Shown piece after piece: positions 1-31,984 of a DNA stretch of 64,000 nucleotides. The notes beneath the pieces were generated by a model. The model was not told the origin of the DNA. It made no database searches and saw only the letters and a program-made list of their open reading frames with translations. This DNA comes from an uncultured Gammaproteobacteria bacterium (lineage in GTDB: Bacteria > Patescibacteriota > Microgenomatia > Levybacterales > UBA12049): NCBI GenBank assembly GCA_964416505.1, contig CAYQEJ010000006.1, positions 13,827-77,826 on the forward strand, written 5' to 3'. The first letter of the stretch is position 1, and every line of letters begins with the position of its first letter. The translations under genes were made by a program, and so were the position numbers.

Positions 1-65
1 GCAATAGTTTTGCGAAAAAAATCTTCGGCTTTTTGCAAGATTCTTCTCTTTTGTTCATCATTCAT
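1..65 (-). CDS. hypothetical protein, N-terminal fragment (gene runs off the window start)
   Basis: Reverse complement of 1-65 begins ATG and reads MNDEQKRRILQKAEDFFRKTIA. It stays open to the window edge. Too short to identify. Confidence 0.2.
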   Translation of the reverse strand, partial: MNDEQKRRILQKAEDFFRKTI

Positions 66-481
66 ATTTTGCATTATACTGCTTGGGAGGCTGGGAAGGA
101 AATAAGCAATTAAATATTTCCAAAAGATATAGTTTGATCGAATTGACTTTTAACTCCCCAAGTTTTAAAGTTTATAAACTCCGAATAGAGTCAAAATAGA
201 TTGATTCGATAGGCTAAAACTCTCGGGTTTTAACTTAAAAATGAAAATCTATAGAGATTCTCAAGCGCATTCAGGATAATTTGTTTGGAGAAACCCTATG
301 GCAGGACAAACAAATGGCAGCACCGCTAAGGAGTTCCTCTTCTGGGGATAAGTGCTGTCTGCTATGACAGAAGAATGAGATGATTCTTCAAAATTCCGAA
401 GAATTCTAGGGATTTTGATGGTGGCAGGAATGCAATCAGGGAAAGAGAGTGAATAGGCATCTACCTACGATCTCTCTTTTT

Positions 482-709
482 TTATTCTGAAAGAGGCCTT
501 TGAGACTGCGCATTAAGCTCTCCAACTAATTTACCTATTTGAAATTCCTGTAAAACTATTACCTGTCTTAAATTAATACATTCATGACAACTCGTAGCAG
601 GTCTACCTCTATGCCTATTTGTTACATGCGCCCCAAATTGCCCCCATGTAGTTTTAAGTTCGTGCCTCAAGACTTCAAGCTGGTTACCGATACTTTCTCC
701 ATTTTCCAT
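482..709 (-). CDS. small hypothetical protein (75 aa), GC-richer than surroundings
   Basis: ORF track 75 aa. Contains a CHEC motif plus His/Arg-rich segment (AHVTNRHRGRP...CHECINL), which may be a degenerate HNH-like or zinc-binding remnant. No confident family. Confidence 0.3.
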   Translation of the reverse strand: MENGESIGNQLEVLRHELKTTWGQFGAHVTNRHRGRPATSCHECINLRQVIVLQEFQIGKLVGELNAQSQRPLSE

Positions 710-752
710 CCGGGTATTCTACCATAAATAGCCTCAAAAATAAACTATAGGA

Positions 753-1307
753 TTATGGATTTGGTGTTGGGGACTCAGCTGGACTCACAGCTGGATCAGG
801 GCTTGGAGATGGAGCTTCTTTAGAAGCTATATCTAGAAGTTCTATTTGAAAAATAAGAGGTGTATTTGGAGGAATCACGCTTCCCTGACCTGTAGCACCA
901 TAACCTAAATCGGATGGAATCGCCACTTGTCTTTTCCCTCCAATTTTCATACCCAAAACTCCCTGATCAAATCCCGGAATGACCTGCCCTGCTCCTACCT
1001 GAAAAGTAAATGGCTGTCCTCTCTGATATGAATTATCAAAAGCTTTACCATCTAAAAATGCGCCGATGTAATTAACTGTTATAGTATCTCCTGCCGCAAC
1101 TGAAGCCGAAGATGAACCTACATTTAAATCCTGCATTTGAAGCTGAGTGAGCACGGGACTAGGAGTCACATTCGCATTTTTCCTAAAACCAAGACCTGTC
1201 AAATCTTCTCCCATTTTTGGAGTTTTTGAAGACTGAAAAACCAGTAAAACCATAAGAAGAATTAAAAGCCCAAATCCACCAATTCCAATTAAATACTTAT
1301 TGTCCAC
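753..1307 (-). CDS. FKBP-type peptidyl-prolyl cis-trans isomerase, N-terminal membrane anchor
   Basis: FKBP domain signature GDTITVNYIGAFLDGKAFDNSY...FTFQVGAGQVIPGFDQGVLGMKIGGKRQVAIPSDLGYG. N-terminal hydrophobic helix and a Pro/Ser-rich C-terminal tail. Confidence 0.85.
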   Translation of the reverse strand: MDNKYLIGIGGFGLLILLMVLLVFQSSKTPKMGEDLTGLGFRKNANVTPSPVLTQLQMQDLNVGSSSASVAAGDTITVNYIGAFLDGKAFDNSYQRGQPFTFQVGAGQVIPGFDQGVLGMKIGGKRQVAIPSDLGYGATGQGSVIPPNTPLIFQIELLDIASKEAPSPSPDPAVSPAESPTPNP

Positions 1308-1340
1308 GGGGGCTATTATAGCAAACTAAACAAGAGGAGT

Positions 1341-1583
1341 TTATTGTGTTCTTGCAACTTTTGCGAGTCTGATCTTTTCTTTCTTCATAGCTTCATCAGC
1401 TGCAACTTTTTCAAAAGCCTTCTGACATTCTTTATTTGTACATACTACAAGCGTATGTTGAAGAGTCATAAAACCACTATCATTTTTAATTTTTTCAGTC
1501 CACGTTTTTTTAACGATTCTTTTGGAACCGCATCTGTCACATTTTTTATCGACTGATTCAATTGGATTTCCAATTTTTGGCAT
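1341..1583 (-). CDS. small zinc-ribbon protein (CxxC...C..C), hypothetical
   Basis: 80 aa with CDRCGSK and CTNKEC cysteine pairs and a Lys-rich tail. The antisense ORF 1344..1556 is rejected. Confidence 0.5.
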   Translation of the reverse strand: MPKIGNPIESVDKKCDRCGSKRIVKKTWTEKIKNDSGFMTLQHTLVVCTNKECQKAFEKVAADEAMKKEKIRLAKVARTQ

Positions 1584-1679
1584 ATTTATTATTGAGTTAA
1601 GAATGAGGAAATAACTCTAGGATCAGTATAGCAGATTTCGCCTCAGAAACCTAATTTTAGATTCTGGTATAATCTAGCC

Positions 1680-3479
1680 ATGAGCGCGAAGCAAATTATT
1701 GATATTTATATTAGTTTTTTTGAAAAAAGAGGACATAAAAGAATTCCTAATTCTCCGCTTATTCCTGAAAATGATCCGACCACGCTTTTTACGAGCTCAG
1801 GAATGCAACCTTTAGTGCCATATCTCTTGGGAGAAACCCATCCGCAGGGAAATCGCTTAGTAGATGTGCAGAATTGCTTCCGCGCAGTAGACATAGATGA
1901 AGTAGGAGACAATAGACATACTACATTTTTTAGAATGCTCGGAAACTGGAGTCTGGGAGATTATTTCAAGAAAGAGCAACTTCCATGGTTTTGGGAATTC
2001 CTAACTAAAGAGCTGAGGATTGATCCAAAAAAACTTTTTGTAACTGTTTTAGAAAGTCCGGAACTTAATCAAACAGATGAAGAGTCAATTCAGATCTGGA
2101 ATGAAATTTTTAACATAGAAGGGTTAAATCGTGGGGATAGAATTCACAAGTATAACGTTGATAAAAACTGGTGGTCAAGATCAGGTACTCCAGATAAAAT
2201 GCCAGTGGGCGAACCAGGCGGCCCAGACTCAGAGGTTTTTTATGATTTTGGAACTCCCCACGATAAAAGATTTGGAGACATGTGCCATCCTAACTGTGAC
2301 TGCGGAAGATTTATAGAAATTGGAAATTCTGTTTTCATGCAATACATAAAAACAGAAGAAGGATTCAATGAGCTTCCTAAAAAAAATGTAGATTTTGGTG
2401 CCGGAGTTGAAAGACTTCTTATGGCCGTAGAAAATCAATCAGATATTTTTAAAACTTCTCTTTTCGCGCCAATCATAAAATCCATAGAAGAATTAACTAA
2501 TAAAAAATATGAAGAAAATTCCAGAGAAATGAGAATCATAGCTGATCATTTAACCGCCTCAGTCTTCTTAAGTAACAGCGGTGTAATCCCAAGCAACAAA
2601 GATCAAGGTTATATTTTGCGCCGCGTTATAAGGAGAAGCACGGATAATTTAAATGTACTAGGAAGCGAGAATCTAGAACCTATAATTAAAGCAATTGTGG
2701 ATCAATATTCTTCTACTGATGAAGCGCTAAATACTAAATTTGATGAAATTAAATCTTTAATCCTTAAAGAATCAACATCTTATAAAAAAACTTTAAATGA
2801 AGCAAAGAAGCTAATTGAAAAAGAGCTTACCAAATCTGGTGGAGATAAAAAAATATCTTCAGACTTAGCATTTAAAGCCATGTCTTCCTACGGCCTCTCT
2901 CCAACTCAGCTCAAAAATCTAGGATATGAATTTAACGAGATAGAGCTCGCAGACTTAATCGATAAGCACGTTGAAATTTCCCGTGCTGGAGCGACCAAGA
3001 AATTCGCAGGAGGACTTGCGGATCATTCGGAACAAACTGTAAGAGGACACACTGCGACTCATCTTATGCATCAGGCAATTCGCGATATGCTAGGAACATA
3101 TGTTCATCAGTCAGGATCAAATATTACAAGTGAGAGAGTAAGATTTGATTTTAACTTTGATAGAAACTTAACTGATGAAGAAATTAAGCAGCTTGAAGAA
3201 AAAGTAAACGAAAAAATAAAAGAAAATCTTCCTGTTTATTTCGAGTTTATGCCTTTAGAAAAAGCTAAAGAAATAGGAGCAATTGGTCTTTTTGATGAAA
3301 AATATTCTGATAAAGTAAAAATTTATCTAATTGGAGACAAAGATCCTAGGAAAGCTTACTCTAAAGAATTTTGCGGAGGACCTCATGTAAACTTTACCTC
3401 TGACATAAAATCGTTTAAGATAATAAAGCAGGAAAATATTGGAAATGGCCTGCGTCGCCTATACGTTACGGTAGGCTAG
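1680..3479 (+). CDS. alaS: alanine--tRNA ligase, short form (catalytic + editing domains, no C-Ala domain)
   Basis: Class II AlaRS N-terminus (HKRIPNSPLIPENDPTTLFTSSGMQP...FRMLGNWSLGDYFK). Editing-domain zinc motifs HTATHLMHQAIR and CGGPHV are present. At 599 aa versus ~870, the C-terminal oligomerisation/C-Ala domain is absent. Confidence 0.9.
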   Translation: MSAKQIIDIYISFFEKRGHKRIPNSPLIPENDPTTLFTSSGMQPLVPYLLGETHPQGNRLVDVQNCFRAVDIDEVGDNRHTTFFRMLGNWSLGDYFKKEQLPWFWEFLTKELRIDPKKLFVTVLESPELNQTDEESIQIWNEIFNIEGLNRGDRIHKYNVDKNWWSRSGTPDKMPVGEPGGPDSEVFYDFGTPHDKRFGDMCHPNCDCGRFIEIGNSVFMQYIKTEEGFNELPKKNVDFGAGVERLLMAVENQSDIFKTSLFAPIIKSIEELTNKKYEENSREMRIIADHLTASVFLSNSGVIPSNKDQGYILRRVIRRSTDNLNVLGSENLEPIIKAIVDQYSSTDEALNTKFDEIKSLILKESTSYKKTLNEAKKLIEKELTKSGGDKKISSDLAFKAMSSYGLSPTQLKNLGYEFNEIELADLIDKHVEISRAGATKKFAGGLADHSEQTVRGHTATHLMHQAIRDMLGTYVHQSGSNITSERVRFDFNFDRNLTDEEIKQLEEKVNEKIKENLPVYFEFMPLEKAKEIGAIGLFDEKYSDKVKIYLIGDKDPRKAYSKEFCGGPHVNFTSDIKSFKIIKQENIGNGLRRLYVTVG

Positions 3480-3485
3480 TTCTCT

Positions 3486-5786
3486 ATGAAATTACCAAAT
3501 CTGCCCTTTTTGGAGAAAAAGAATAACTCAGAGTATTTCCTCTCATTGGTACTTCGCGATGAAAAAGCTAGCGCTGTAGTTTTTCATGAAATAAATGGAA
3601 AAATTAACGTGGTAGGAGAACACGTAGAAAATTTCAAAACTTCTATAGAAGACGCCACAGAAGATGAACTATTAGAAATAATCGATAAGGCAGTCTCAAC
3701 TGCTGAAAAAAGTCTTCCCCCAAATGTTCAGAGTCAAAAAACAATTTTTGGTGTAAAAGAAGATTGGATTGAAAATGGAAAGATAAAACCTCAATATCTT
3801 TCAAAACTTAAAAAAGTAAGCGATGAACTGGATTTTAAACCAATGGGATTTTTGGTAATTCCAGAAGCTATTGCGCATTTGCTGGCTAAGGAAGAAGGTG
3901 CTCCTATTAGCGCAATCCTAGCTGAAGTAGGACATAAATCTACAAGCGTCTCAATAATAAGAGCTGGAAAGTTGATAGAAACAAAAAATGGACCGATTTC
4001 TGATTCCATGGTAGAAAGCGTAGAGAATTTAATAAAACAATTTACCATAGAAACCTTACCAGCAAGAATTATCTTATTTGATGGAGGACGTGAAGATATT
4101 CAACAAAAATTTATTTCACATAAGTGGAGCAGAGAACTTCCCTTCCTACATCTTCCCCAAGTAAGCGCACTCCCAGCGAATTTTGACGCAAGAGCGGTAC
4201 TTTCCGGGGCTGCAACTCAAATGGGATTTGATGTTTTCGAAGCTTCAGTTACGAAAGCTGAAAAAATCGATAAAGGAGAGGTTCCTGAAATGGAAAAGCC
4301 GATAAAAGAAGAGGAAGATAAAACCCTAGGCGAAGCAGCGACTGAGTTTGGTTTTGTTGGCGGAGACATAAAAGACGAAGAGAAACCAGACGAAAAGATT
4401 GAAGAAGATGAAGAAATTGAAACGCTAGAATCAAACGAGCCAAAGATTAATGAAAAAATGCACATGGATGAAAAACCAAAAACAGCTGTTATGGATAACA
4501 TTTCCCCTGCCGATCAGTTTAGGGAAATTCCAGATGAAATAAAATTAAATAATGCTGATAAAAAACCTCTTCCAATTAATGCATCATTTATATCTATTGG
4601 CATTTTAAATTTTGTTAAAAAAATTCACATAGGAAAATTTGTTAAAGGCGCCAATAGCTCCAGGAAAAAACTTTTAATTGGCATAATTCCATTAGCTATC
4701 TTACTTTTAATTCTCTATTTATATCTTTTTGGGAGAAGCGCTACTGTAACTCTGGGTATTAATGGGCAGGAAAAAGAAAAAGAAGTAGATGTAACTTTTT
4801 CTCAAAGTGAATCTACTAATGCCTCTGAAGACATAATAAATTCAAATTTCATTACAGTTACGGAGGATGGGAAAAAATCTATCCCAACAACCGGTAAAAA
4901 AGAAGTTGGAGATAAAGCAAAGGGAGTGGTAACAATGTTTAACAGCAACTCAAATGGCGTAACTCTCCCAGCCGGAACAATAATTACTTCTTCAAATGAC
5001 CTCAAATTCTCAACTGATAAAGCTGTTACAATAGCTTCTTCCTCTGGAGATATTTTTTCAGGAACAGAACCTGGAAAAGCTGATGTTCCTGTTACTGCAG
5101 AAAAATTTGGAACTAACTATAATCTCCCAAGCAATACTAAATTTAGCGTAGAAGGAAGTTCTTCTATAGCTGCAAAAAATGATAAAGCATTTTCTGGTGG
5201 AACTAAAAAAGAAATTAAAGTTGTCGCTAAAAAAGATTTAGAAAAATTAGCAACCGACCTTCAAAAACAATTAGAATCAAGCGCCCAAGATGATCTGAAA
5301 AAACAGGCAGATAATGATTCAACTATTCTTCCAAATTTCATTACAGTTGAGTTTGATAAAAAAAGCTATTCTAAGGATGTAGATGATGAAGCGACTGAAG
5401 TAAGTCTTACTGCAAGTATAAATTATATTGGTGTTACGTATAAGAATGAAGATATTTTAGCTTTCGCAAAAGACAAATTAGAAGATGGAAGCGATCTAGA
5501 AGTTGATAAAGATAGCGTGGAAACAAGCGCTACCAATATTAAGAGCAAAGGAAAATCTGCAACAGGAAATCTCAAAATTAAAGCAAGACTTGTACCAAAA
5601 CTTGATCAAAAAACTCTCATAAAAGAAATAAAAGGTAAATCTACCAAAGAAGCTACTAGAAAACTAAATGAAATCGATGAGGTAAATAAGGTAGATATTA
5701 AAATTTTTCCACCAATTCCATTTCTACCAAATCGTCTTCCCTTCACCTCAGGGAAAATAAAAATTTCAACGGAGAAAAATGGCTAA
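3486..5786 (+). CDS. membrane protein: N-terminal FtsA/PilM-like actin-fold domain, one TM helix, large extracellular C-terminal domain
   Basis: N-terminal ~380 aa resemble the actin-like ATPase fold of FtsA/PilM (e.g. PISAILAEVGHKSTSVSIIRAGKLIETKNGPISDSMV). An acidic linker follows, then the TM segment LLIGIIPLAILLLILYLYLFG and a ~350-aa Ser/Thr/Lys-rich ectodomain. It starts 7 nt after alaS and its 3' end overlaps the sortase gene. Confidence 0.5.
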   Translation: MKLPNLPFLEKKNNSEYFLSLVLRDEKASAVVFHEINGKINVVGEHVENFKTSIEDATEDELLEIIDKAVSTAEKSLPPNVQSQKTIFGVKEDWIENGKIKPQYLSKLKKVSDELDFKPMGFLVIPEAIAHLLAKEEGAPISAILAEVGHKSTSVSIIRAGKLIETKNGPISDSMVESVENLIKQFTIETLPARIILFDGGREDIQQKFISHKWSRELPFLHLPQVSALPANFDARAVLSGAATQMGFDVFEASVTKAEKIDKGEVPEMEKPIKEEEDKTLGEAATEFGFVGGDIKDEEKPDEKIEEDEEIETLESNEPKINEKMHMDEKPKTAVMDNISPADQFREIPDEIKLNNADKKPLPINASFISIGILNFVKKIHIGKFVKGANSSRKKLLIGIIPLAILLLILYLYLFGRSATVTLGINGQEKEKEVDVTFSQSESTNASEDIINSNFITVTEDGKKSIPTTGKKEVGDKAKGVVTMFNSNSNGVTLPAGTIITSSNDLKFSTDKAVTIASSSGDIFSGTEPGKADVPVTAEKFGTNYNLPSNTKFSVEGSSSIAAKNDKAFSGGTKKEIKVVAKKDLEKLATDLQKQLESSAQDDLKKQADNDSTILPNFITVEFDKKSYSKDVDDEATEVSLTASINYIGVTYKNEDILAFAKDKLEDGSDLEVDKDSVETSATNIKSKGKSATGNLKIKARLVPKLDQKTLIKEIKGKSTKEATRKLNEIDEVNKVDIKIFPPIPFLPNRLPFTSGKIKISTEKNG

Positions 5787-6492
5787 ATATTATCAAAAAG
5801 GAAAGAAAATAAATTATAAGATTTTTCTTAAATTAATAAGTGTAATTATTTTAATTTTTGGAGGAATTTTATTTGCATACACTTTTTTCCCATTAATCTC
5901 ATGGAAAATATATTTTGCTCCCGCATTTGCCTCTCAAAAAATTCAAACTCCTATCCCAAATCAGACAGTTATAAATCCTTCTAATATTGGCACTCTTATT
6001 GCAAATGCCACCAATTCACTAAATACGGATTATACAAATGCCTACAACTGGTACCCCGGTGCACTTCAAAAATCGAATAACATAGCTACATATAAAATCT
6101 CATTTCCAAAAATTGGCATAACGGACGCAATAGTTTCCAATGAAGATGCTGATCTTTCGAAACATTTAGTGCAATTTAATTCCGATACTCTCCCAGGAAA
6201 GGATGGAAATTCAGTTATATTTGGACACTCTACTCTTCCTCAACTTTATGATCCCAAAAATTACAAAACTATTTTTGCGAATGCATACAAATTAGAAGTG
6301 GGAGATCAAATTATTACAGAGGTTAATGGAATAAAAAATAATTATAAAATTGTAAACATAACTGTAGTGGAACCTACCGACACTTCTCCTCTCGCACAAA
6401 ACTTTACAGACAGTTTTTTAACTATAATTACATGCACGCCACCTGGTACAATTTGGAAAAGACTAATCATAAGAGCAAGAATTGAGAAATAA
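5779..6492 (+). CDS. sortase family transpeptidase
   Basis: N-terminal TM anchor, catalytic His context (NSVIFGHSTLP), TLxTC-type active site (LTIITCTPPGT) and a downstream conserved Arg (RLIIRAR). Confidence 0.8.
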   Translation: MAKYYQKGKKINYKIFLKLISVIILIFGGILFAYTFFPLISWKIYFAPAFASQKIQTPIPNQTVINPSNIGTLIANATNSLNTDYTNAYNWYPGALQKSNNIATYKISFPKIGITDAIVSNEDADLSKHLVQFNSDTLPGKDGNSVIFGHSTLPQLYDPKNYKTIFANAYKLEVGDQIITEVNGIKNNYKIVNITVVEPTDTSPLAQNFTDSFLTIITCTPPGTIWKRLIIRARIEK

Positions 6493-7899: not shown

Positions 7900-8852
7900 A
7901 GAGAATCTATATAACAGTAGGAATCTTGGCTGTAATTATAGTTATTTCCCTTGGCTGGTGGATTAGAGGAACCTCACCTGCAAATAAAAATGACCAGACC
8001 CCAAAAATATTTATAGTTGAAAAAGGACAAGGTGTAAGAGCAATTGCAAAAAATCTTAAAGATGAAAAACTTATAAAGGATCAAATAGCTTTCTTTTTAC
8101 TCACTAAACAAACTGGATTAGATAACAAAATTCAGGCAGGCAGCTTCAGATTGAACCCTTCCATGAGCGCCCAAGAAATTGCTAAGGCTTTAACTGTTGG
8201 AACTGAAGATGTTTGGATAACAATTCCTGAAGGTCAACGTGCTGGAGAAATTTCTGATGCTCTCGAAAAAGTTATGCCAAACTACGATCCTTCTTGGTAT
8301 AAAAAGCTTGAAGCTAATGAAGGCTATTTATTCCCGGACACATATCTACTCCCAAAAGAGGCTGATATAGATACCGTTATTTCAATAATGACAAATAATT
8401 TTGAGGCAAAATATGAAACTATTGATACTTCAAAGGTCAACCTTACAAAAGCTCAAATAGTAACATTAGCTTCTTTAATTGAGCGGGAAGCAAGACACGA
8501 CGAAGACAGACCCATGGTTTCAAGCGTAATTCATAATAGACTTAATATCGGCATGAAACTTGATATAGATGCAACTCTGCAATACATAAAAGGCTACGAT
8601 AATTCTCAAGAAAAATGGTGGTCATCAAATATAACTAACGCAGATAAAACCTCGAATTCACCCTACAACACCTACAATCACGCAGGTCTTCCTCCAGCTC
8701 CAATCTCAAATCCAGGACTCACAAGCCTTCAGGCTGCAGTAAATCCAGCTAATACAGATTACCTATATTACATAACAGACAAAAATGGAATAAATAGGTA
8801 TGCAGAAACTCTAGATCAACATGAGGCTAACATTTCTCGCTACGGATTATAA
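7896..8852 (+). CDS. mltG: endolytic murein transglycosylase MltG (YceG-like)
   Basis: N-terminal TM helix, then a YceG-like domain (FRLNPSMSAQEIAKAL...ITIPEGQRAGEI...LIEREARHDEDRPMVSSVIHNRLNIGMKLDIDATLQY). Start overlaps the upstream stop (ATGA). Confidence 0.8.
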   Translation: MKRIYITVGILAVIIVISLGWWIRGTSPANKNDQTPKIFIVEKGQGVRAIAKNLKDEKLIKDQIAFFLLTKQTGLDNKIQAGSFRLNPSMSAQEIAKALTVGTEDVWITIPEGQRAGEISDALEKVMPNYDPSWYKKLEANEGYLFPDTYLLPKEADIDTVISIMTNNFEAKYETIDTSKVNLTKAQIVTLASLIEREARHDEDRPMVSSVIHNRLNIGMKLDIDATLQYIKGYDNSQEKWWSSNITNADKTSNSPYNTYNHAGLPPAPISNPGLTSLQAAVNPANTDYLYYITDKNGINRYAETLDQHEANISRYGL

Positions 8853-23934: not shown

Positions 23935-25356
23935 TTAGCTATGGCATATTACCATATCGCCTATCGCAAAGTCAATAGAAGGCCCTACTATTATTCCGGC
24001 CTCTTGACCTGCTTCAACTTTTGAGGTCTGATCTTTTCCTTGTCTAACTGAATTTATATAACCTTCCCCAATCACTTCTTCTTTTCTCTCAATCCTAACT
24101 TTATCTCCTTTAGCAACACGCCCTTCTACTACTTTTATTCCCATTACCTTTTGCTTTTCATAAGGGAAAATCGCCAAGACCTGAGCAACTCCATAAACTT
24201 CCTCGAGAAGAGACAGTGCTTTTCCTTCAACTACATCATTAATCTCATCTAGCATTTCGTAGATAATGCTGTAAGACTTTGCTAGGACTTTTTCAGTTGA
24301 AGCAAGACGCGCAATATCTGGTTTTATTTTTATATTAAATCCTAAAACAAATGCTCCGATTGACTTAGCGAGGAGTATATCAGCAGCTGTAATTTCACCT
24401 GTTTTCTTTGAAATTAAGTTTAATTTTTCTGGAATAGAAGCCGTAATTGCTTCAAGTGAACCAATTGTATCGGCAACCAGCATTATTGAAACATAGTCCT
24501 GATTATTTTTACGTTTATTTTCTTCCTTAATTTCTTTAACTTCACTCCCACGATTCACTACACTTCCTACGCTTGGAGCTTTCTCAAAACCTAAAATCTC
24601 AACAGCTTCTCCTACAGTCGCTGATTGAACCTGTTTTCCTGAATCTGAAATTAATCCTCTAACTTTTCCTGAAACTTCTCCTGTAGTTATTTCGTCTCTG
24701 ACATTTATAGTTCCATTTTTTATTATAACCGTAGCTTTCGGCCCTGCTTTAGGATCCTGCTTAGATTCAATTATAACTGCTTCAAGAAGACCTCCTGAAT
24801 TTATTTTTTCGTCCTTTGTACGAAGATCATTTACTAAAAGAATCAAATCTAAAAGTTCTTTAATGTTTGATCCTGCTTTTGCTGAAACTTCAATAATTGG
24901 CACATCTCCACCATAACCCTCAATTAAGACTTCTTCCTTCATTAATCCTTGTTTTGCTTTTTCAATGTTTTTTTGTGGATCATCAGATTTTGTTAAAACT
25001 ACTATATATGGCACTTTTGAAGCTTTAAGAAGAGAGATGCTTTCCTTTGTTTGGGGCATTACTCCATCAACAGAAGACACAATTAGAAGTCCTATATCCG
25101 CAGCTTGAGCACCTCTTCCTCTCATTTTCGCAAACGCTTCATGCCCAGGAGTATCTATAAAAGTAATTCTTCTTTTTTCCCCTTCGTGGTCTACTTCTAC
25201 AGTAGACGCTCCAATTTTTTGCGTAATTCCTCCAAATTCACGCGCTGCGACACCTGTTTTCCTGATTGTATCTAAAAGAGTGGTTTTACCATGGTCAACG
25301 TGGCCTAAGACTGCTACGACAGGAGGAAATTGATTAGATTCATTTTTTGTGTCCAT
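23935..25356 (-). CDS. infB: translation initiation factor IF-2 (minimal form: G domain + C-terminal domains)
   Basis: G1 motif AVLGHVDHGKTTLLD, DTPGHEAF and NKSD. 473 aa with no N-terminal extension. Confidence 0.9.
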   Translation of the reverse strand: MDTKNESNQFPPVVAVLGHVDHGKTTLLDTIRKTGVAAREFGGITQKIGASTVEVDHEGEKRRITFIDTPGHEAFAKMRGRGAQAADIGLLIVSSVDGVMPQTKESISLLKASKVPYIVVLTKSDDPQKNIEKAKQGLMKEEVLIEGYGGDVPIIEVSAKAGSNIKELLDLILLVNDLRTKDEKINSGGLLEAVIIESKQDPKAGPKATVIIKNGTINVRDEITTGEVSGKVRGLISDSGKQVQSATVGEAVEILGFEKAPSVGSVVNRGSEVKEIKEENKRKNNQDYVSIMLVADTIGSLEAITASIPEKLNLISKKTGEITAADILLAKSIGAFVLGFNIKIKPDIARLASTEKVLAKSYSIIYEMLDEINDVVEGKALSLLEEVYGVAQVLAIFPYEKQKVMGIKVVEGRVAKGDKVRIERKEEVIGEGYINSVRQGKDQTSKVEAGQEAGIIVGPSIDFAIGDMVICHS

Positions 25357-26623: not shown

Positions 26624-29011
26624 TTATTTATTATTTTTCCTAACAGAAGCGCCCTTAACACTTGGCCCAAAAAGATCAGTCAGGAGAGCATTCGACTGAT
26701 TAATCAGATTCTCATATCTTCTCATCTGATCATAATCGCTTTCACTTAACCATTCCTTTTTAGTAATTTTATTATTTATATATAATGCAATTTCATTTTC
26801 TTCCTTAAGAAGATCTACTGCTTTTTTGATCTTAATTTGATCTTTACTCGAATCCCCTATCCAAGTTTTTATAACGACTAATACTTCCGATGAATTACTT
26901 GCCTCTTTTGACCAATATTGAACTTCCTTGTCTGTATAAGTTGGAACACCGTCAACCAAAGAAAAATTTTTATTTATATTTTCTTTTGGCCAACATGAAG
27001 AGCGACATCCGCCTACGATATTTGTAATATTTGTCTTTAAAAGGAATCCCCAATTTCTTGAGTCCATACTATATTCCCTATTGTCTCCTAGAATTACGTA
27101 ACTATTCGCTGGTATTTCGATTACGCTTCCTTCTTTAATAAATGCATCACCATAAGTTTTTGTATTACCAACATATCCCTCAACAAGTCTTTGATCATTG
27201 ATATAAACATTTCCACCTAATATCTTTAACTTTTCACCCGGTAATCCGATTATTCTTCCTATTCTATGTTCAGATAAATTTCTTGGAAATTTATATATAA
27301 CAACATCGCCCCTATTGATTAGATCTCTATTCTCATCAAAACCAGTAGTCGAGTATTCTTCAGTATTCATGTAGCTAGGATTCATAGCGTCTCCATTAAT
27401 TACAAAATTTTTATGGCCTGGGAGCCAACCATTAAGAAGAAGATTTAGAACCACAAATCCACTAATGATCAAAATTATTACTGAAACAATTAAGTTCCAT
27501 AAGATTGGATGACTTCTAATCTTTTCTTCATTTGTTTTAAGATATCTTAAGCTAACCGATGAACCAATCCCCCTGTAAAACCACCCTTCAACTTCGACAT
27601 CTCGACCAATCAATTTCTTTACTTTCCGTAGAGCAAAAAATAAATTGCCAATAAATGAAAGCAGTGAATTGTAATTTAAAAAAGTTAAACCAGATTTATC
27701 CTGAAGCATAACATCTTCGCTAAAAACATATCCCGGAATACCTTTTCCAATTATTTTTCCATTAAGCCTAATCACTCTTCCTCTTATTGGAGAAGCATAT
27801 ATATTTCTCATCTCATCAATAATTGTTGTATCAGATGCTTTTCCAAATGGATGTGAATAAATTGTTTTTATTAATAACCCCATTGAAAAACCAATTAATG
27901 CAGCCCAAAGATTAATAAAATAAAAGGCAAAAACTGCAAGCATTATTGGCATAATTAAAACTAAGAGTCCTATAAAAAAGTTAACATACAGCTTTACTTT
28001 ATTTATTTTCAATCTTGTTATCGCGGCGTCTATATCAAATGAAAAAGGTTTTCCGAGTTTTTTCGATAGATCACTTAAGTGATCTATTCTCCTACCTGTT
28101 AAAGGGTGTGTTGATGATAGTTCTAATAATTTCGCCCACGGGCTGACACGATCATAAGCAAGTGCTTCTGCAATCAAATTTGGATTACTATTGGTTTCGT
28201 ATGTAATAAGCCCAACATTTTTAGCATTTTTTACATCCGTTATTCCTAAATGTCTTGTGCTCTGTAAAAGTCTTTTAGATTTATCATCATCTTTTGCCGC
28301 CACAATTCCATATGCAATCTTTATTAAAGCGTTGGATAAATCTTGAGGAGACGTAAGTTTTGCTGAAAATTCATCCGCTAATCTTTCCCTAATCCTACTC
28401 AAATAATAAAGTAAATAAACACTGACAATATATAGAGCATAAGAAGCTAAAGCGATCAACTTTAGATTTCCAGATTTCTTCCCTTTTGCTCTTATTAAAA
28501 CTGCGTAGATTTCATATAAAATCTGAACAAGCGTACTAGCTATCATCATTACGACAAAATCCCTATGAACTATATGCCCAAGCTCATGAGCAATTACTGC
28601 TTCCTGTTCATTTTCACTTAAATATTCGAATATACCCTCAGTAATTATTAATCTAGAGTTGTATCTTGCAGTTCCGTATGTAAAGGCGGTCGGATTCTTA
28701 TCAGGAATTATTCCAATTTTAGGAAATTTGAAATTATGCTCTGCGCAAACTTTTTTAATTAATTCTGCTAATTTTACATGTTTTTCTGTAAATTCTTGCT
28801 CAGTCTCGAAACTTATTTTATAAAAAATTTTATTAAAAAAATCAGTTAAAGCGGGAGAGATAATCCAGGAAATAAAATTTATTATTATCGTTAATCCAAT
28901 GGCAAAATAAACATTAAGTTGATCTAAATAAATTAATGATGCCAAAACTATAGCGAATACAAATGAAGTAATTAGTCCGAGAGTAAATAAAGATGCTCCA
29001 AAAAGCCTCAC
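26624..29011 (-). CDS. fusion protein: M48 (HtpX-like) zinc metalloprotease + signal peptidase I (S26)-like domain with non-canonical catalytic residues
   Basis: HEXXH (AVIAHELGHIVHRD) and a downstream ADEFSA glutamate, within multiple TM helices. The C-terminal half has SPase I boxes: NGDAMNPSY (box B, Ala where the Ser nucleophile is expected), RGDVVIYKFP (box C), GRIIGLPGEK (box D, Gly where the general-base Lys is expected) and VILGDNREYSMDSRNWGFL (box E). Confidence 0.7.
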   Translation of the reverse strand: MRLFGASLFTLGLITSFVFAIVLASLIYLDQLNVYFAIGLTIIINFISWIISPALTDFFNKIFYKISFETEQEFTEKHVKLAELIKKVCAEHNFKFPKIGIIPDKNPTAFTYGTARYNSRLIITEGIFEYLSENEQEAVIAHELGHIVHRDFVVMMIASTLVQILYEIYAVLIRAKGKKSGNLKLIALASYALYIVSVYLLYYLSRIRERLADEFSAKLTSPQDLSNALIKIAYGIVAAKDDDKSKRLLQSTRHLGITDVKNAKNVGLITYETNSNPNLIAEALAYDRVSPWAKLLELSSTHPLTGRRIDHLSDLSKKLGKPFSFDIDAAITRLKINKVKLYVNFFIGLLVLIMPIMLAVFAFYFINLWAALIGFSMGLLIKTIYSHPFGKASDTTIIDEMRNIYASPIRGRVIRLNGKIIGKGIPGYVFSEDVMLQDKSGLTFLNYNSLLSFIGNLFFALRKVKKLIGRDVEVEGWFYRGIGSSVSLRYLKTNEEKIRSHPILWNLIVSVIILIISGFVVLNLLLNGWLPGHKNFVINGDAMNPSYMNTEEYSTTGFDENRDLINRGDVVIYKFPRNLSEHRIGRIIGLPGEKLKILGGNVYINDQRLVEGYVGNTKTYGDAFIKEGSVIEIPANSYVILGDNREYSMDSRNWGFLLKTNITNIVGGCRSSCWPKENINKNFSLVDGVPTYTDKEVQYWSKEASNSSEVLVVIKTWIGDSSKDQIKIKKAVDLLKEENEIALYINNKITKKEWLSESDYDQMRRYENLINQSNALLTDLFGPSVKGASVRKNNK

Positions 29012-29051: not shown

Positions 29052-29555
29052 TTAGAATTGATCCTGAGGAATATTGATGATTTTCGAATAATGTTTACCA
29101 CTTCTCATTTTTGTGTTAACTGTCAACTTCACATCTTTAGCTCTATGAAGCACACATCTTTTTCCAGAACAGCTACCAAATGGTATTTCATATCTTACAA
29201 AAGGCTTACCATTGATATTCCCTGTATAAATTTCCTTTCTCGGAATAAATGACCCTTCAACCCCGCCCCTTACACCATTATCTCTATTTGTATAATTTAA
29301 ATTATAATAAACATACTCTACCCCATTAAAATCTTCAAAATCTATAAATAAAGCTTTTTTGTCACTTCTCACGTAAGGTGTTGCGAAAACACCGTCGTTA
29401 TTTGTACTTGTCCATAAAGTTGTTGTTCTTTTAGTGGATGCAAAAGAGTTGTTATTTAATGTAGACAAAAAGAAAAAAGAAAGGAATAAGACTACGGGTA
29501 GAATAATCTTCAGTTTCATTAGTTTTATAATATAAACATAAAGACAATTGAACAA
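29052..29555 (-). CDS. secreted hypothetical protein
   Basis: Likely true start MKLKIILPVVLFL (about 29519) giving a signal peptide. The mature part is Asn/Tyr/Gly-rich with 3 Cys. Confidence 0.45.
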   Translation of the reverse strand: MFNCLYVYIIKLMKLKIILPVVLFLSFFFLSTLNNNSFASTKRTTTLWTSTNNDGVFATPYVRSDKKALFIDFEDFNGVEYVYYNLNYTNRDNGVRGGVEGSFIPRKEIYTGNINGKPFVRYEIPFGSCSGKRCVLHRAKDVKLTVNTKMRSGKHYSKIINIPQDQF

Positions 29556-29590: not shown

Positions 29591-31984
29591 TTAATTTTTT
29601 GTGAAAATTAATGTGGAATTTTGGTCAACTGAAATATTAATACTATCTCCTCTTACAATCTCTCCTGAAAGCATTTTTTTAGCTATTTCGTCTTCTACTT
29701 TATCCTGAATAAAACGAGCAAGTGGCCTTGCACCAAACTCCTCATCAAAACCACCTTTAGAAATAACTTCTATCGCAGATGGTGAAAAATTTAAAGCAAT
29801 ATCTTGTTCTTTTAACTTGGAAATTAATTTTTGAAGCATCAAATTGGTAATTTCTGAAATCTGCGAAGAACTTAAAGGATTAAAAATAACTATGTCATCA
29901 AATCTATTTAGAAGTTCAGGTTTAAATAATGCATTTTTCTGAAGAAAATCCAAAAGCACCTGATTGGAGAGCGAAGAATTTGACCTTAAGCTTTCCCTAA
30001 TTAACTCTGAACCTGCGTTACTAGTTGCAATAATGATAGCATTAGTAAAAGAAATCGTCCTCCCGCTTGAATCCGTCATTCTTCCATCATCTAAAACTTG
30101 AAGAAACAAATCTATAATTTTTTCATTTGCTTTTTCAAATTCATCGAGAAGAATTAGACAAAATTGATGATTCAAAACTTGATCAAGAAAACTGCCTGAA
30201 CTGTTTTCCAAAAATCTTCCAACAGAATCTGGACTTCCATATTCACTCATATCTACTCTAACTATTTTTTCTTCCCCTCCAAAATAAATTTTGGAGATAG
30301 ACTTTGCTGTTTCTGTTTTTCCCACACCAGTTGGACCTAAGAATAAAAATGAGATAGGTTTTTCTCGTGTCAGACCAACTCTAATTCTCCTGATTGCCTG
30401 CGATATTGATTTAATTGCCTGATCTTGACCAATCACAAACCTATGCATTTCCTTTTCCAGATTTAACAATAAGCTTTTTTCTTCCTGTGTAGGAGATCCA
30501 ACCGGAATATGACTTCTGTCACGTACTTTAGATAAAACATCTTCTTCTAAAACAATTTTGTTTTTTCTATTCGAAAGCCTTATTGAATTTGCAGTTTCTT
30601 CCAAAAGCTCTACAGCAGTTCCAGGAAGAGAAGCAGCCAGGTCAAATTTATCGGCATAAAAAATAGCAGTACGAATCGATTTGTAACTTAATTTTATTTT
30701 ATATTTTTCTTCTATATCTTCAGATTTTTGTAAAATCATCTTTAAAGCCTCATTACTGTCGGGTTCTTCTAATTTTATAATTTCAAATACTTCACGAAGA
30801 GAATTTTTCTCAAAATAGTTCTTGTATTCTCCGTTTGTCATTGTCGCAATTATTGGCATTTTTCCATCTTTAAGATAAGGAAGAATTGCTCCAGATAAAT
30901 TTACCCCATAAGAACTTGATCCTAAAAGATTTTGGAACTCTGGTATAAATAAAATTATATTTCCAGAATGTTTTACCTCTTCAATTATCGCCTGTAATCT
31001 TACCTCAAGCTCTTCTCTGTTCTGCGTCCCCGCAACTAGTGAACCTACAGATATTTCCAAAAATCTTCTATGATTAAGTTTTTTATTTAAGTTCGATTCG
31101 TAGCTATCAAAAATAAAATTTTCAACAAGTGTTGTTTTACCAACTCCTATATTTCCCACTAATAAAACATTGTTATCAGAATTTTTTTGAAGAGCCTCAA
31201 GCATTACTCCATACTGATCTTCACGTCCCTCGATATAAGATCTTTTTCTAATATTTGAAAATGTAATATCTTTTGTATAGTTTTTAGTTTCAGGTGTCCA
31301 TCCCCAAACTAGTGTTTCACCGATGCCAATTCCTATAAATCTTACGCGTCTTTTTTTAATTTCTTCTTCTTTAAAACTAATTCTTGCCCAATGATTAATA
31401 TTTAAAATATCATCCTCTTTTAATTTATTTGCAAATAATAATTTGGTTTGGTTCTCTGTTATTAAAAAATAAGAAGTCAATAAATCTGAAGAAGTAATAT
31501 ATTTTCCACTCTGACTTGACGCAATTTGAAAAGCTTTATTAAATAATTCTTCTTTTGTAAATTCCACAATCTCAAAAGAATTTTTATCAATTGCACACTT
31601 TTCAAGATAAAACCTGCCCCCCTTACTATTTAGTAGATAGCTAATTATGGATTTCGTATTTTTCTTAAACAAAACAGAAATTAATGCCTCTTTAGTAAAG
31701 CAGTCCAGTAAATTTTCTGGATTCTCTCTGATAGATTTAGAAGGAAATATTTCTTCCAATTCAAACTTAATAAAGATATGAATTATCAATGCAAGAGATA
31801 ATACAAAAAGTGGAACTGCTATATTCAATCCGTAAGCTATGGAATAAATTAACCACCCTAAAAAAATAAAAAATAAAATTATTTTTATAAATAGGAAAAC
31901 CAAAGAATTGTAAATTAAACTAACGCCAACTTTTCCCTCTCTCATAAAATAAATAAAATTGCCAATGTAAGCACAGGCCACCAA
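29591..31984 (-). CDS. membrane-anchored ClpA/ClpB-family double AAA+ protein (NBD1 Walker B degenerate)
   Basis: N-terminal TM helices instead of a Clp N-domain. NBD1 has Walker A LLVGNIGVGKTTLVENF but its Walker B reads ILFIPEF (Pro in place of Asp). NBD2 is canonical (FLFLGPTGVGKTETAKSI, LILLDEFEKANEKIIDLFLQVLDDGRMTD, sensor/Arg finger region). The ORF-track start is a TTG. Confidence 0.75.
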   Translation of the reverse strand: MVACAYIGNFIYFMREGKVGVSLIYNSLVFLFIKIILFFIFLGWLIYSIAYGLNIAVPLFVLSLALIIHIFIKFELEEIFPSKSIRENPENLLDCFTKEALISVLFKKNTKSIISYLLNSKGGRFYLEKCAIDKNSFEIVEFTKEELFNKAFQIASSQSGKYITSSDLLTSYFLITENQTKLLFANKLKEDDILNINHWARISFKEEEIKKRRVRFIGIGIGETLVWGWTPETKNYTKDITFSNIRKRSYIEGREDQYGVMLEALQKNSDNNVLLVGNIGVGKTTLVENFIFDSYESNLNKKLNHRRFLEISVGSLVAGTQNREELEVRLQAIIEEVKHSGNIILFIPEFQNLLGSSSYGVNLSGAILPYLKDGKMPIIATMTNGEYKNYFEKNSLREVFEIIKLEEPDSNEALKMILQKSEDIEEKYKIKLSYKSIRTAIFYADKFDLAASLPGTAVELLEETANSIRLSNRKNKIVLEEDVLSKVRDRSHIPVGSPTQEEKSLLLNLEKEMHRFVIGQDQAIKSISQAIRRIRVGLTREKPISFLFLGPTGVGKTETAKSISKIYFGGEEKIVRVDMSEYGSPDSVGRFLENSSGSFLDQVLNHQFCLILLDEFEKANEKIIDLFLQVLDDGRMTDSSGRTISFTNAIIIATSNAGSELIRESLRSNSSLSNQVLLDFLQKNALFKPELLNRFDDIVIFNPLSSSQISEITNLMLQKLISKLKEQDIALNFSPSAIEVISKGGFDEEFGARPLARFIQDKVEDEIAKKMLSGEIVRGDSINISVDQNSTLIFTKN

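Follow-up and report, generated by a model that had tools for sequence, protein, structure and literature searches.

An HtpX-like M48 membrane metalloprotease fused to a dyad-less signal-peptidase-like domain in an uncultivated bacterium with a small genome

Introduction

Protease folds that act by binding rather than by cleavage have been described in bacteria before. SipA (LepA) of Streptococcus pyogenes (PDB 4n31) carries Asp and Gly at the two dyad positions of type I signal peptidase (SPase I). It is inactive as a peptidase, its cleft for the binding of peptides is conserved, and it is thought to act by binding (PMC4049620). In Bacillus subtilis, the catalytically dead form of the rhomboid YqgP presents substrates to FtsH as a pseudoprotease adaptor (PMC7231995). 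Among the membrane metalloproteases of family M48, HtpX works in membrane quality control (PMC8767453), and Ste24 likewise has a function in quality control, at translocons in which secretory precursors have become stuck (PMC10456885). Here we describe a gene of an uncultivated bacterium that joins these two themes in a single open reading frame (ORF). It lies in a 64-kb stretch of contig CAYQEJ010000006.1 (positions 13,827 to 77,826; hereafter the window) and encodes an M48 metalloprotease followed by an S26 signal-peptidase-like domain. A preliminary description of this DNA, made by eye, had already noticed the fusion and a substituted dyad.

The concept of a pseudo-peptidase as accessory module of a membrane protease is known, and the combination found here appears to be new. 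No account of an M48/HtpX-signal-peptidase fusion was found in the full-text literature searched, including the literature on pseudo-signal-peptidases of the candidate phyla radiation (CPR), the coverage of this search being incomplete.

Results

Both Catalytic Residues of the Signal-Peptidase-Like Half Are Replaced

Both halves of the protein are recognized by profile searches well above the respective cut-offs. Peptidase_M48 (PF01435) matches residues 80-314 (E=6e-29, 101.6 bits, cut-off 20.3), Peptidase_S26 (PF10502) matches residues 529-664 (E=2.8e-24, 86.4 bits, cut-off 22.9) and the NCBIfam model TIGR02227 (sigpep_I_bact) scores 98.3 bits against a cut-off of 47. The HtpX equivalog models of NCBIfam also match the fusion at E=1e-32, but the best of them reaches 113.2 bits against a cut-off of 341. 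Judged by these scores, the M48 half is HtpX-like and neither an ortholog nor an equivalog of HtpX, and by descent the fusion protein belongs to M48 and S26 alike. The GTG start of the ORF is backed by the alignment of orthologs at the N-terminus. H142, E143 and H146 of the HELGH motif as well as E209 are invariant in 118 orthologs; from general knowledge of the M48 family, Glu209 is presumably the third zinc ligand.

The preliminary description had read an Ala at the position of the nucleophilic Ser and a Gly at the position of the general-base Lys, and had proposed formal alignment as a check. Four alignments were made (phmmer against solved SPases, MAFFT, L-INS-i and hmmalign), and all four bear out the reading by eye, as none of them puts a Ser together with a Lys or His at the S26 catalytic positions. 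In the phmmer alignment INGDAMNPS, which is part of FVINGDAMNPSY (residues 536-547, Ser-box region), lies opposite IKGESMDPT of SpsB, and HRIGRIIGLPGEK (residues 582-594, Lys-box region) lies opposite DYVKRVIGVPGDK of SpsB and DYIKRAVGLPGDK of E. coli. When the query was aligned by MAFFT with its 120 nearest S26 homologs, there were 117 Ser and 5 Ala in the Ser column and 118 Lys, 2 Gly and 2 Arg in the Lys column, and both dyad residues are gone only in the query and its allele. The assignment of Ala542 and Gly585 is the same in L-INS-i with 150 representatives of an exhaustive search (see below) and in hmmalign.

The dyad is lost from a domain that is otherwise well preserved. RGDVVIYKFP is found at residues 567-576, and within box E the stretch GDNREYSMDSR (residues 642-652) fits the consensus G-D-N-R-x-x-S-x-D-S-R throughout; together with the remaining motifs quoted in the preliminary description, both could be located at verified coordinates. 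All other conserved S26 positions are kept as well. Among them are the counterparts of E. coli F84, I86, M91, V132, I144 and R146, the first five of which line the substrate-binding cleft in published SPase I structures. Since neither of the two catalytic residues of an S26 peptidase is present, the S26-like half should, on its sequence, be classed with the non-peptidase homologues of S26.

The Fusion Is a Genuine Gene Under Purifying Selection

Three alleles of the fusion are distributed over the NCBI contig, which has a length of 81.9 kb, and four Logan-run assemblies (SRR32548951, SRR20074301, SRR20074300 and SRR34753048); two of these alleles (P0001 and P0242) join the query in its cluster at 90% identity. 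The architecture is identical in all of them and the gene order is constant, with a ClpB-like ATPase, a small secreted protein, the fusion, nusA and infB. An assembly error that joins two separate genes, which the preliminary description had named as a possible objection, is contradicted by this uninterrupted ORF with the same neighbours in five sources.

The copy in the window and that of locus L001 share 93.5% DNA identity, i.e., the alleles differ at about 6.5% of the nucleotides. On the basis of this pair the ratio of nonsynonymous to synonymous substitutions (dN/dS) was calculated for each segment by the Nei-Gojobori method. The ratio is low in every segment and, at about 0.1, similar for the S26-like part and the M48 part (Table 1), which argues that the dead S26 domain is kept by selection. 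The GC content is equal on either side of the M48/S26 junction, and because the S26 part is anchored by a helix that is at the same time the last transmembrane (TM) helix of the conserved M48 core, TM7, there is no space for a gene boundary. An assembly chimera and a pseudogene were both considered and rejected because of the recurrence in independent assemblies, the purifying selection and the uniform composition. The fusion is a genuine, lineage-restricted gene of an uncultivated small-genome bacterium, which probably belongs to the CPR and, going by the names of the sources of its closest M48 and S26 relatives, there probably to the Microgenomates/OP11 group.

Membrane Layout and Structure Models

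Seven TM helices were found in the core by hydropathy and in a high-confidence AlphaFold2 (AF2) model of residues 1-530. Between TM6 and TM7 lies a mid-domain of ~115 amino acids with six strands, one helix and many residues that are invariant across orthologs. It has no match in Pfam and a weak Foldseek similarity to the N-terminal OB (oligonucleotide/oligosaccharide-binding) region of lysyl-tRNA synthetases, and judged from the model it is possibly OB-like. This mid-domain defines a distinct M48 subfamily of ~530 amino acids with seven TM helices. The best matches of the core among solved structures are ZMPSTE24/Ste24 and the HtpX domain 3cqb. The latter matches residues 80-157 in a phmmer search, and the former was found by Foldseek with the full-length model (E=7.5e-5, ~336 aligned columns, TM-score 0.41, high root-mean-square deviation (rmsd)).

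A joint alignment of M48-only and S26-only homologs smeared the S26 part over M48, and two separate models were used instead. The second model, covering residues 488-795, was built with 110 S26 homologs and has a predicted local distance difference test (pLDDT) score of 84-97 for the S26 core, followed by about four tail helices at residues 694-703, 707-717, 722-750 and 757-781 (approximate limits). SpsB, SipA, the SPase of E. faecalis and E. coli LepB are the top Foldseek matches of this core (E=3e-9 to 1e-5), with E=3e-9 for SpsB and a TM-score of 0.77 at an rmsd of 2.5 Å for SipA.

The domains of SPase I are extracytoplasmic, and the active site of HtpX is cytoplasmic, as Shimohata et al. 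reportedly showed in 2002. Because of this knowledge of the two families, the hydropathy and the charge bias around TM7, with four Lys or Arg in the 15 residues before the helix and one in the 15 residues after it as fits an in-to-out orientation, the M48 site and the mid-domain are predicted to be cytoplasmic and residues 527-795 to be extracytoplasmic. The position that corresponds to the SPase active site follows TM7 at a distance of 16 residues, the same as in true SPases, which would put the S26-like site at the outer membrane surface. The loop between TM3 and TM4, AKGKKSG (residues 174-180, about 28472-28492 on the minus strand), is conserved and strongly basic and would point outward if both helices span the membrane; it may be that TM3 and TM4 form a re-entrant hairpin or that the loop serves some specific purpose.

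Table 1. Features of the fusion gene and of the gene upstream, with positions in the window and in the protein.
Feature	Residues	Position	Strand	dN/dS	Basis or remark
Whole fusion gene (795 amino acids plus stop, GTG start)	1-795	26624..29011	-		ORF listing
M48 metalloprotease region, TM1-TM4	1-335	28007..29011	-	0.053	PF01435; AF2 pLDDT mostly 85-98
TM1	2-29				Model
TM2	34-64				Model
HELGH zinc-binding/catalytic motif	142-146	28574..28588	-		Coordinates verified
TM3	151-173				Model
TM4	180-219				Model
Glu209 within RERLADEFSA	209	28385..28387	-		Coordinates verified
TM5-TM6 helical hairpin	338-386	27854..28000	-		Hydropathy; model helices pLDDT >93
TM5	338-365				Model
TM6	368-386				Model
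Beta-rich mid-domain	387-501	27509..27853	-	0.088	Ortholog conservation; AF2 pLDDT 82-96
TM7, last helix of M48 core and anchor of S26-like domain	502-526	27434..27508	-	0.11 (with S26-like domain)	Model; ~530-amino-acid orthologs stop just past TM7
S26-like domain without dyad	527-680	26972..27433	-	0.11 (with TM7)	PF10502, TIGR02227, AF2, Foldseek
Ala542 at nucleophile Ser position (E. coli Ser90)	542	27386..27388	-		Four alignments
Gly585 at general-base Lys position (E. coli Lys145)	585	27257..27259	-		Four alignments
Box E, intact, GDNREYSMDSRNWGF	642-656	27044..27088	-		Every position as in family consensus
CRSSC (C-x3-C)	669-673	26993..27007	-		Alignment
C-terminal helical tail, about four helices	690-795	26627..26944	-	0.12	AF2 models; blastp
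Small secreted protein gene (155-167 amino acids)		29052..29555	-		40 nt upstream of the fusion in all fusion-bearing contigs

The S26-Like Module Was Added to a Complete M48 Protein

The 120 best full-length homologs have a length of ~530 amino acids, cover the query from residue 1 to about residue 520 and stop right after TM7, and an S26 domain is absent from all of them except for the query's own cluster. Therefore, the S26-like module is an addition to a complete protein, with TM7 as its anchor. The core family itself is widespread but patchy and was found in CPR phyla, in DPANN and Methanosarcinales archaea, in Hyphomicrobium/Methyloceanibacter (Hyphomicrobiaceae) and in cyanobacteria (L009-L088). 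In a set of 185,579 species representatives, none of the 80 best loci contains the fusion. When 1.84 billion representatives were searched exhaustively by phmmer with residues 526-795 as query, 17,099 S26 relatives were obtained, in which E values better than 1e-35 are confined to the query's own cluster, and no other HEXXH-containing protein is present among the best 150 of them.

Other additions are found at the same site in a few orthologs. P0009 has a weak PsbP-like match past TM7 (residues 553-666), and the C-termini of P0096 and P0107 have in common an unknown domain of ~170 amino acids past TM7. The C-terminus behind TM7 seems to be a hot spot for the accretion of unrelated extracytoplasmic domains.

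The nearest relatives of the fused S26 core are short stand-alone paralogs of the Ala type, in which the Lys is kept, and RDD-S26 fusions, with 41-46% identity. Its tail is 37-42% identical to the tails of the dyad-intact proteins P0243-P0246 (blastp, E=1e-23 to 1e-26), and the CAP-like domain of such S26-CAP-tail proteins is absent from the fusion. A C-x3-C motif is common to the fusion and dyad-less S26 paralogs (CYWNC, CYGNC and CFKNC in P0125, L007 and L089, respectively) and is not present in the aligned dyad-intact tail-bearing SPases.

Related Lineages Have Neighbouring M48 and Dyad-Less S26 Genes

In three loci a close M48 ortholog (P0011 in L007, P0003 in L089 and P0025 in L103) has a gene for an S26-CAP-tail protein as neighbour, which is 68-90 bp away on the opposite strand and divergently transcribed. 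The adjacent proteins have a length of 427-440 amino acids, and a profile search assigned four members to their subfamily (P0406, P0407, P0345 and P0408). Since the contigs of P0408 and of the M48 ortholog P0008 both have a length of exactly 3544 bp, we infer that these two form a fourth pair. According to the hmmalign alignment all four S26 proteins are dyad-less: three of them have Asn/Ala and the remaining one has Asn/Gly. Box E is degenerate in three of the four.

The preliminary description had raised the question whether the fusion is conserved across related lineages, and the answer is divided: the fusion itself is restricted to a narrow lineage, and a separate dyad-less S26 neighbour is present in three related lineages. 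A fusion in one lineage and divergent adjacency in others is a classical signature of functional partnership, and these related lineages appear to run the same M48/S26 partnership with two separate genes. A metagenome scan with the pseudo-SPases of L089 and L007 found 12 distant stand-alone S26 loci, none of which has an M48 neighbour.

In L090, a close relative, genes of mobile elements surround the M48 ortholog (1-5950, 8314-8505), namely those of an IS1595-type transposase and a recombinase as well as two small HTH_17/MerR-like genes. The S26 partner of the sister lineages is absent there, and it is possible that a mobile element has reorganised this region.

Dyad Loss and Fusions Are Frequent Among the S26 Relatives

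In the alignment with the 150 closest representatives, 74 deviate at one or both dyad sites. An Ala at the Ser position was found in 44, typically within G-x-A-M-x-P-x-Y and with the Lys kept, and the Lys is missing in about 35; the Ser of box E is kept in 144 of the 151 sequences. Apparently there is a large unrecognised population of likely pseudo-signal-peptidases, mainly in Microgenomates-type CPR bacteria such as Gottesmanbacteria, Woesebacteria and WWE3.

Among the S26 relatives P0247-P0389 and P0406-P0520, many of the dyad-degenerate proteins are labelled "signal peptidase I" by their sources. Fusions of other types are also present. Several of the RDD-S26 fusions (P0262, P0409, P0416, P0418, P0419, P0473 and P0496) are dyad-degenerate, and P0262 carries the same Ala/Gly pair as the query. 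P0243 is a DUF1189-S26-CAP-tail fusion and P0275 an S26-CAP-TPR fusion, and in L002 (7111-9326) a DUF1189-like gene overlaps the start of the S26-CAP-tail gene P0121.

Genomic Context

According to tblastn and an unfiltered scan of all six-frame ORFs with S26 hidden Markov models, the fusion is the only S26 gene in the window, in agreement with the preliminary description, which had seen no canonical lepB there; an active SPase I gene does not adjoin the fusion in the other contigs either. Signal peptides of the classical AXA type (…NNNSFA|STK, …KNVVYA|ATAG) as well as TatA and TatC are encoded in the window, and for this reason an active SPase I is presumably encoded elsewhere.

The first of these signal peptides, predicted by a heuristic, belongs to the small secreted protein upstream of the fusion, which has no match in Pfam; it is possible that this protein is a co-transcribed operon partner or a client of the fusion. 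Around the fusion gene, promoter and terminator sites are not more numerous than chance would predict.

On the same strand and two genes upstream from the fusion, a ClpA/B-like protein with two AAA+ modules and a strongly hydrophobic, TM-like N-terminus is encoded (29591-31984, minus strand), and its equivalent in L004 matches Pfam AAA twice, AAA_2 and ClpB_D2-small. From its sequence it may be a membrane-anchored unfoldase. It does not adjoin the M48 orthologs in L007, L008, L089 and L103. The initiation factor IF-2 (23935-25356, minus strand) has 473 amino acids and begins essentially at the GTPase domain, without the long N-terminal region that IF-2 typically has in bacteria, which is in keeping with a reduced genome of the CPR type.

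Discussion

The S26-like domain has lost the dyad and has kept fold, cleft residues, box E and selective constraint, and for these reasons we regard it as a pseudo-peptidase. The idea of the preliminary description that a dead signal-peptidase-like domain serves as an accessory module of the M48 protease holds up well, as the loss of the dyad is joined by an SPase I/SipA fold, purifying selection, recurrence of the fusion and dyad-less S26 neighbours in relatives. The module may serve for substrate binding, for regulation or as a scaffold. By analogy with SipA and YqgP we think that the dead, SipA-like domain probably acts as an extracytoplasmic substrate adaptor for the M48 protease in membrane or secretory quality control. 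The domain would sit at the outer face of the membrane, 16 residues past its anchor helix, where a true SPase I would be found. The retained cleft could take up a stretch of peptide where it leaves the membrane, for instance the small-x-small c-region of a signal-anchor or of a signal peptide that is left over or was not cleaved, and the M48 site could then cut the same membrane-spanning client from the cytoplasmic side. The net effect would be a built-in substrate adaptor for the quality control of membrane or secretory proteins.

Several observations weigh against this explanation. The close orthologs L090 and L008 have no S26 neighbour, and no S26 gene is located within 10 kb of the M48 ortholog in any of 80 more distant reference loci, the two closest of which are cut off on the relevant side. 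Consequently, the partnership does not extend to the M48 family in general. With 35-38% identity, the M48-adjacent subfamily is more distant from the fused S26 core than the short Ala-type paralogs are (41-46%), and the tail of the fusion is nearest to that of dyad-intact S26-CAP-tail SPases. As the fused S26 protein and the M48-adjacent ones are not closest relatives of one another, the link to M48 may have arisen more than once, and the fusion and the gene pairs may, to judge from these sequences, be independent events instead of one conserved system. In a neighbour-joining tree of the M48 part with 100 bootstraps, the fusion lineage is a long branch with no stable sister group. The full-length AF2 model has a pLDDT <50 at residues 533-720 and gives no arrangement of the domains to each other. 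Furthermore, the topology is predicted from what is known of the two families together with hydropathy and charge bias, and the positive-inside rule is at odds with the basic loop between TM3 and TM4. Finally, the idea of a signal-peptide client comes from geometry and analogy.

A bolder version, which we put forward tentatively and do not expect to hold in full, would be that the pair of M48 and pseudo-SPase is a dedicated membrane-spanning device, with recognition of the cleavage region of signal peptides outside and the cut of the same client inside, and that the dyad-degenerate S26 paralogs of these small-genome bacteria, including the RDD-S26 fusions, are substrate adaptors for membrane proteins in general. 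If true, this would be a new kind of system for the clearance of signal peptides or stalled precursors.

The rival explanations differ in how well they agree with the data. One that is not very likely, but survives best, is that the dead S26 domain, perhaps together with the tail, binds an active SPase I and thereby tethers the M48 protease to the place where signal peptides are cleaved, so that it degrades released signal peptides or failed precursors there; the partner of the dead domain would then be the enzyme and not the substrate. The tail shares 37-42% identity with that of dyad-intact S26-CAP-tail SPases, and a shared tail could mediate homotypic association; in addition, the AXA-type signal peptides and TatA/TatC in the window point to an active SPase I, presumably encoded elsewhere, although no such gene was found in the window or beside the fusion in other contigs. 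Oligomers in the crystals of SipA, with the N-terminus of one chain in the cleft of another (PMC4049620), are also in line with such docking. The cleft-lining residues retained in the fusion, however, fit the binding of a peptide at least equally well. Moreover, bacterial SPase I is generally regarded as monomeric.

A transducer similar to BlaR1, in which the external dead domain senses a ligand, the signal is relayed via TM7 and the mid-domain, and the M48 protease cleaves a cytoplasmic regulator, is in our opinion unlikely. The layout is similar, with a TM-embedded HEXXH protease on the cytoplasmic side and a C-terminal extracellular domain derived from an enzyme, and the varied external domains at one site in orthologs would be expected for swappable sensors. 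There are also weak Pfam matches to M56 (BlaR1) in the M48 region, but with 18.7 bits the M56 model (PF05569) stays under its gathering score of 31. No BlaI-type repressor or other regulator is adjacent to the fusion, whose neighbours are the ClpB-like ATPase, the small secreted protein, nusA and infB, and the absence of the external domain in most members of the family indicates that the core function needs no sensor.

That the S26 domain cleaves by means of substitute residues and serves as the lepB of the organism seems very improbable to us. In its favour, there is no second S26 gene in the window, the Ser of box E (equivalent to S278) and the structural motifs are all intact, and the loss of the Ser with a kept Lys in 44 of 150 relatives raises the question of activity in that clade. 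However, Ala is no nucleophile and Gly no base, no conserved substitute pair of Ser/Thr/Cys and Lys/His is evident, and Asn/Ala and Asn/Gly in the M48-adjacent relatives point to relaxed constraint at exactly the two dyad positions. The analogous SipA with Asp/Gly has no detectable activity (PMC4049620), and the window covers 64 kb, i.e., a fraction of the genome, so that the absence of lepB from it says little. Thus the divergent mechanism that the preliminary description had offered as an alternative gains no support. A misjoined or wrongly sequenced pair of genes, or an S26 part that drifts neutrally as a remnant, can be practically dismissed: the fusion is confined to one cluster at 90% identity and missing from the best 80 loci of the species representatives, but its 795 codons are unbroken in three alleles from five sources at ~6.5% nucleotide divergence, dN/dS is 0.11 (TM7 and S26) and 0.12 (tail) compared with 0.05 for M48, the composition is uniform over the junction and TM7 as part of the conserved M48 core leaves no room for a boundary.

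Little is understood of the way in which HtpX-type M48 membrane proteases select substrates, and the fusion together with the gene pairs gives a concrete and testable hypothesis, namely that segments similar to signal peptides are held outside and cut inside; the fusion would then be a natural "substrate-trap" construct. Pseudo-signal-peptidases have been known mainly from SipA in the assembly of streptococcal pili, and they seem to be numerous in the CPR, where several types of fusions occur. This matters for annotation, as "signal peptidase I" is routinely assigned to such proteins, and for the understanding of secretion in reduced genomes. The reach of these considerations is limited, as the lineage is narrow, its hosts are uncultivated and the function is read from sequence and models.

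Comparison With Known Systems

SipA is the closest parallel for the S26-like half. Both have an SPase I fold in which other residues stand at the two dyad positions, with a Gly at that of the Lys, both retain the cleft, and both are membrane-anchored and extracytoplasmic, which is a prediction in the case of the fusion. The identity between SipA and the S26 domain of the fusion is about 25%. SipA, however, is a small stand-alone protein encoded in the pilus/sortase islands of Gram-positive cocci and involved in the polymerisation of pilins, whereas the domain described here is covalently linked to a polytopic M48 protease, continues into a helical tail and lies in a neighbourhood free of sortase and pilin genes. 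We considered the S26-like half as an ortholog of SipA and rejected this because of the missing pilus/sortase context; the activity was lost in parallel.

With regard to the M48 half, HtpX shares the HEXXH motif, the downstream Glu and the N-terminal pair of TM helices, and the HtpX models are the best NCBIfam matches. HtpX has ~290 amino acids and four hydrophobic segments, in contrast to ~530 amino acids, three extra TM helices and a beta-rich domain of ~115 amino acids in the core of the fusion. Ste24/ZMPSTE24 (M48A) resembles this core as a polytopic M48 zinc protease with seven TM helices, but is eukaryotic and has no signal-peptidase-like or other luminal recognition domain. BlaR1/MecR1 and the fusion have in common a HEXXH protease embedded among TM helices and, at the C-terminus, an extracellular domain that descends from enzymes and is used, presumably also in the fusion, for binding and not for turnover. 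The sensor of BlaR1/MecR1 has a different fold, though, and no cognate repressor is encoded near the fusion; membership in the BlaR1 family was rejected, as the M56 model remains under its threshold.

The pair of YqgP and FtsH is closest to the explanation that we favour, a dead S26-like domain as substrate adaptor of the M48 protease. In both cases a protease fold serves, or in the fusion would serve, as a non-catalytic adaptor that presents substrates to a membrane zinc metalloprotease in quality control. The differences are that a rhomboid and FtsH are combined there and S26 and M48 folds here, that YqgP and FtsH are separate proteins, and that YqgP keeps its catalytic activity.

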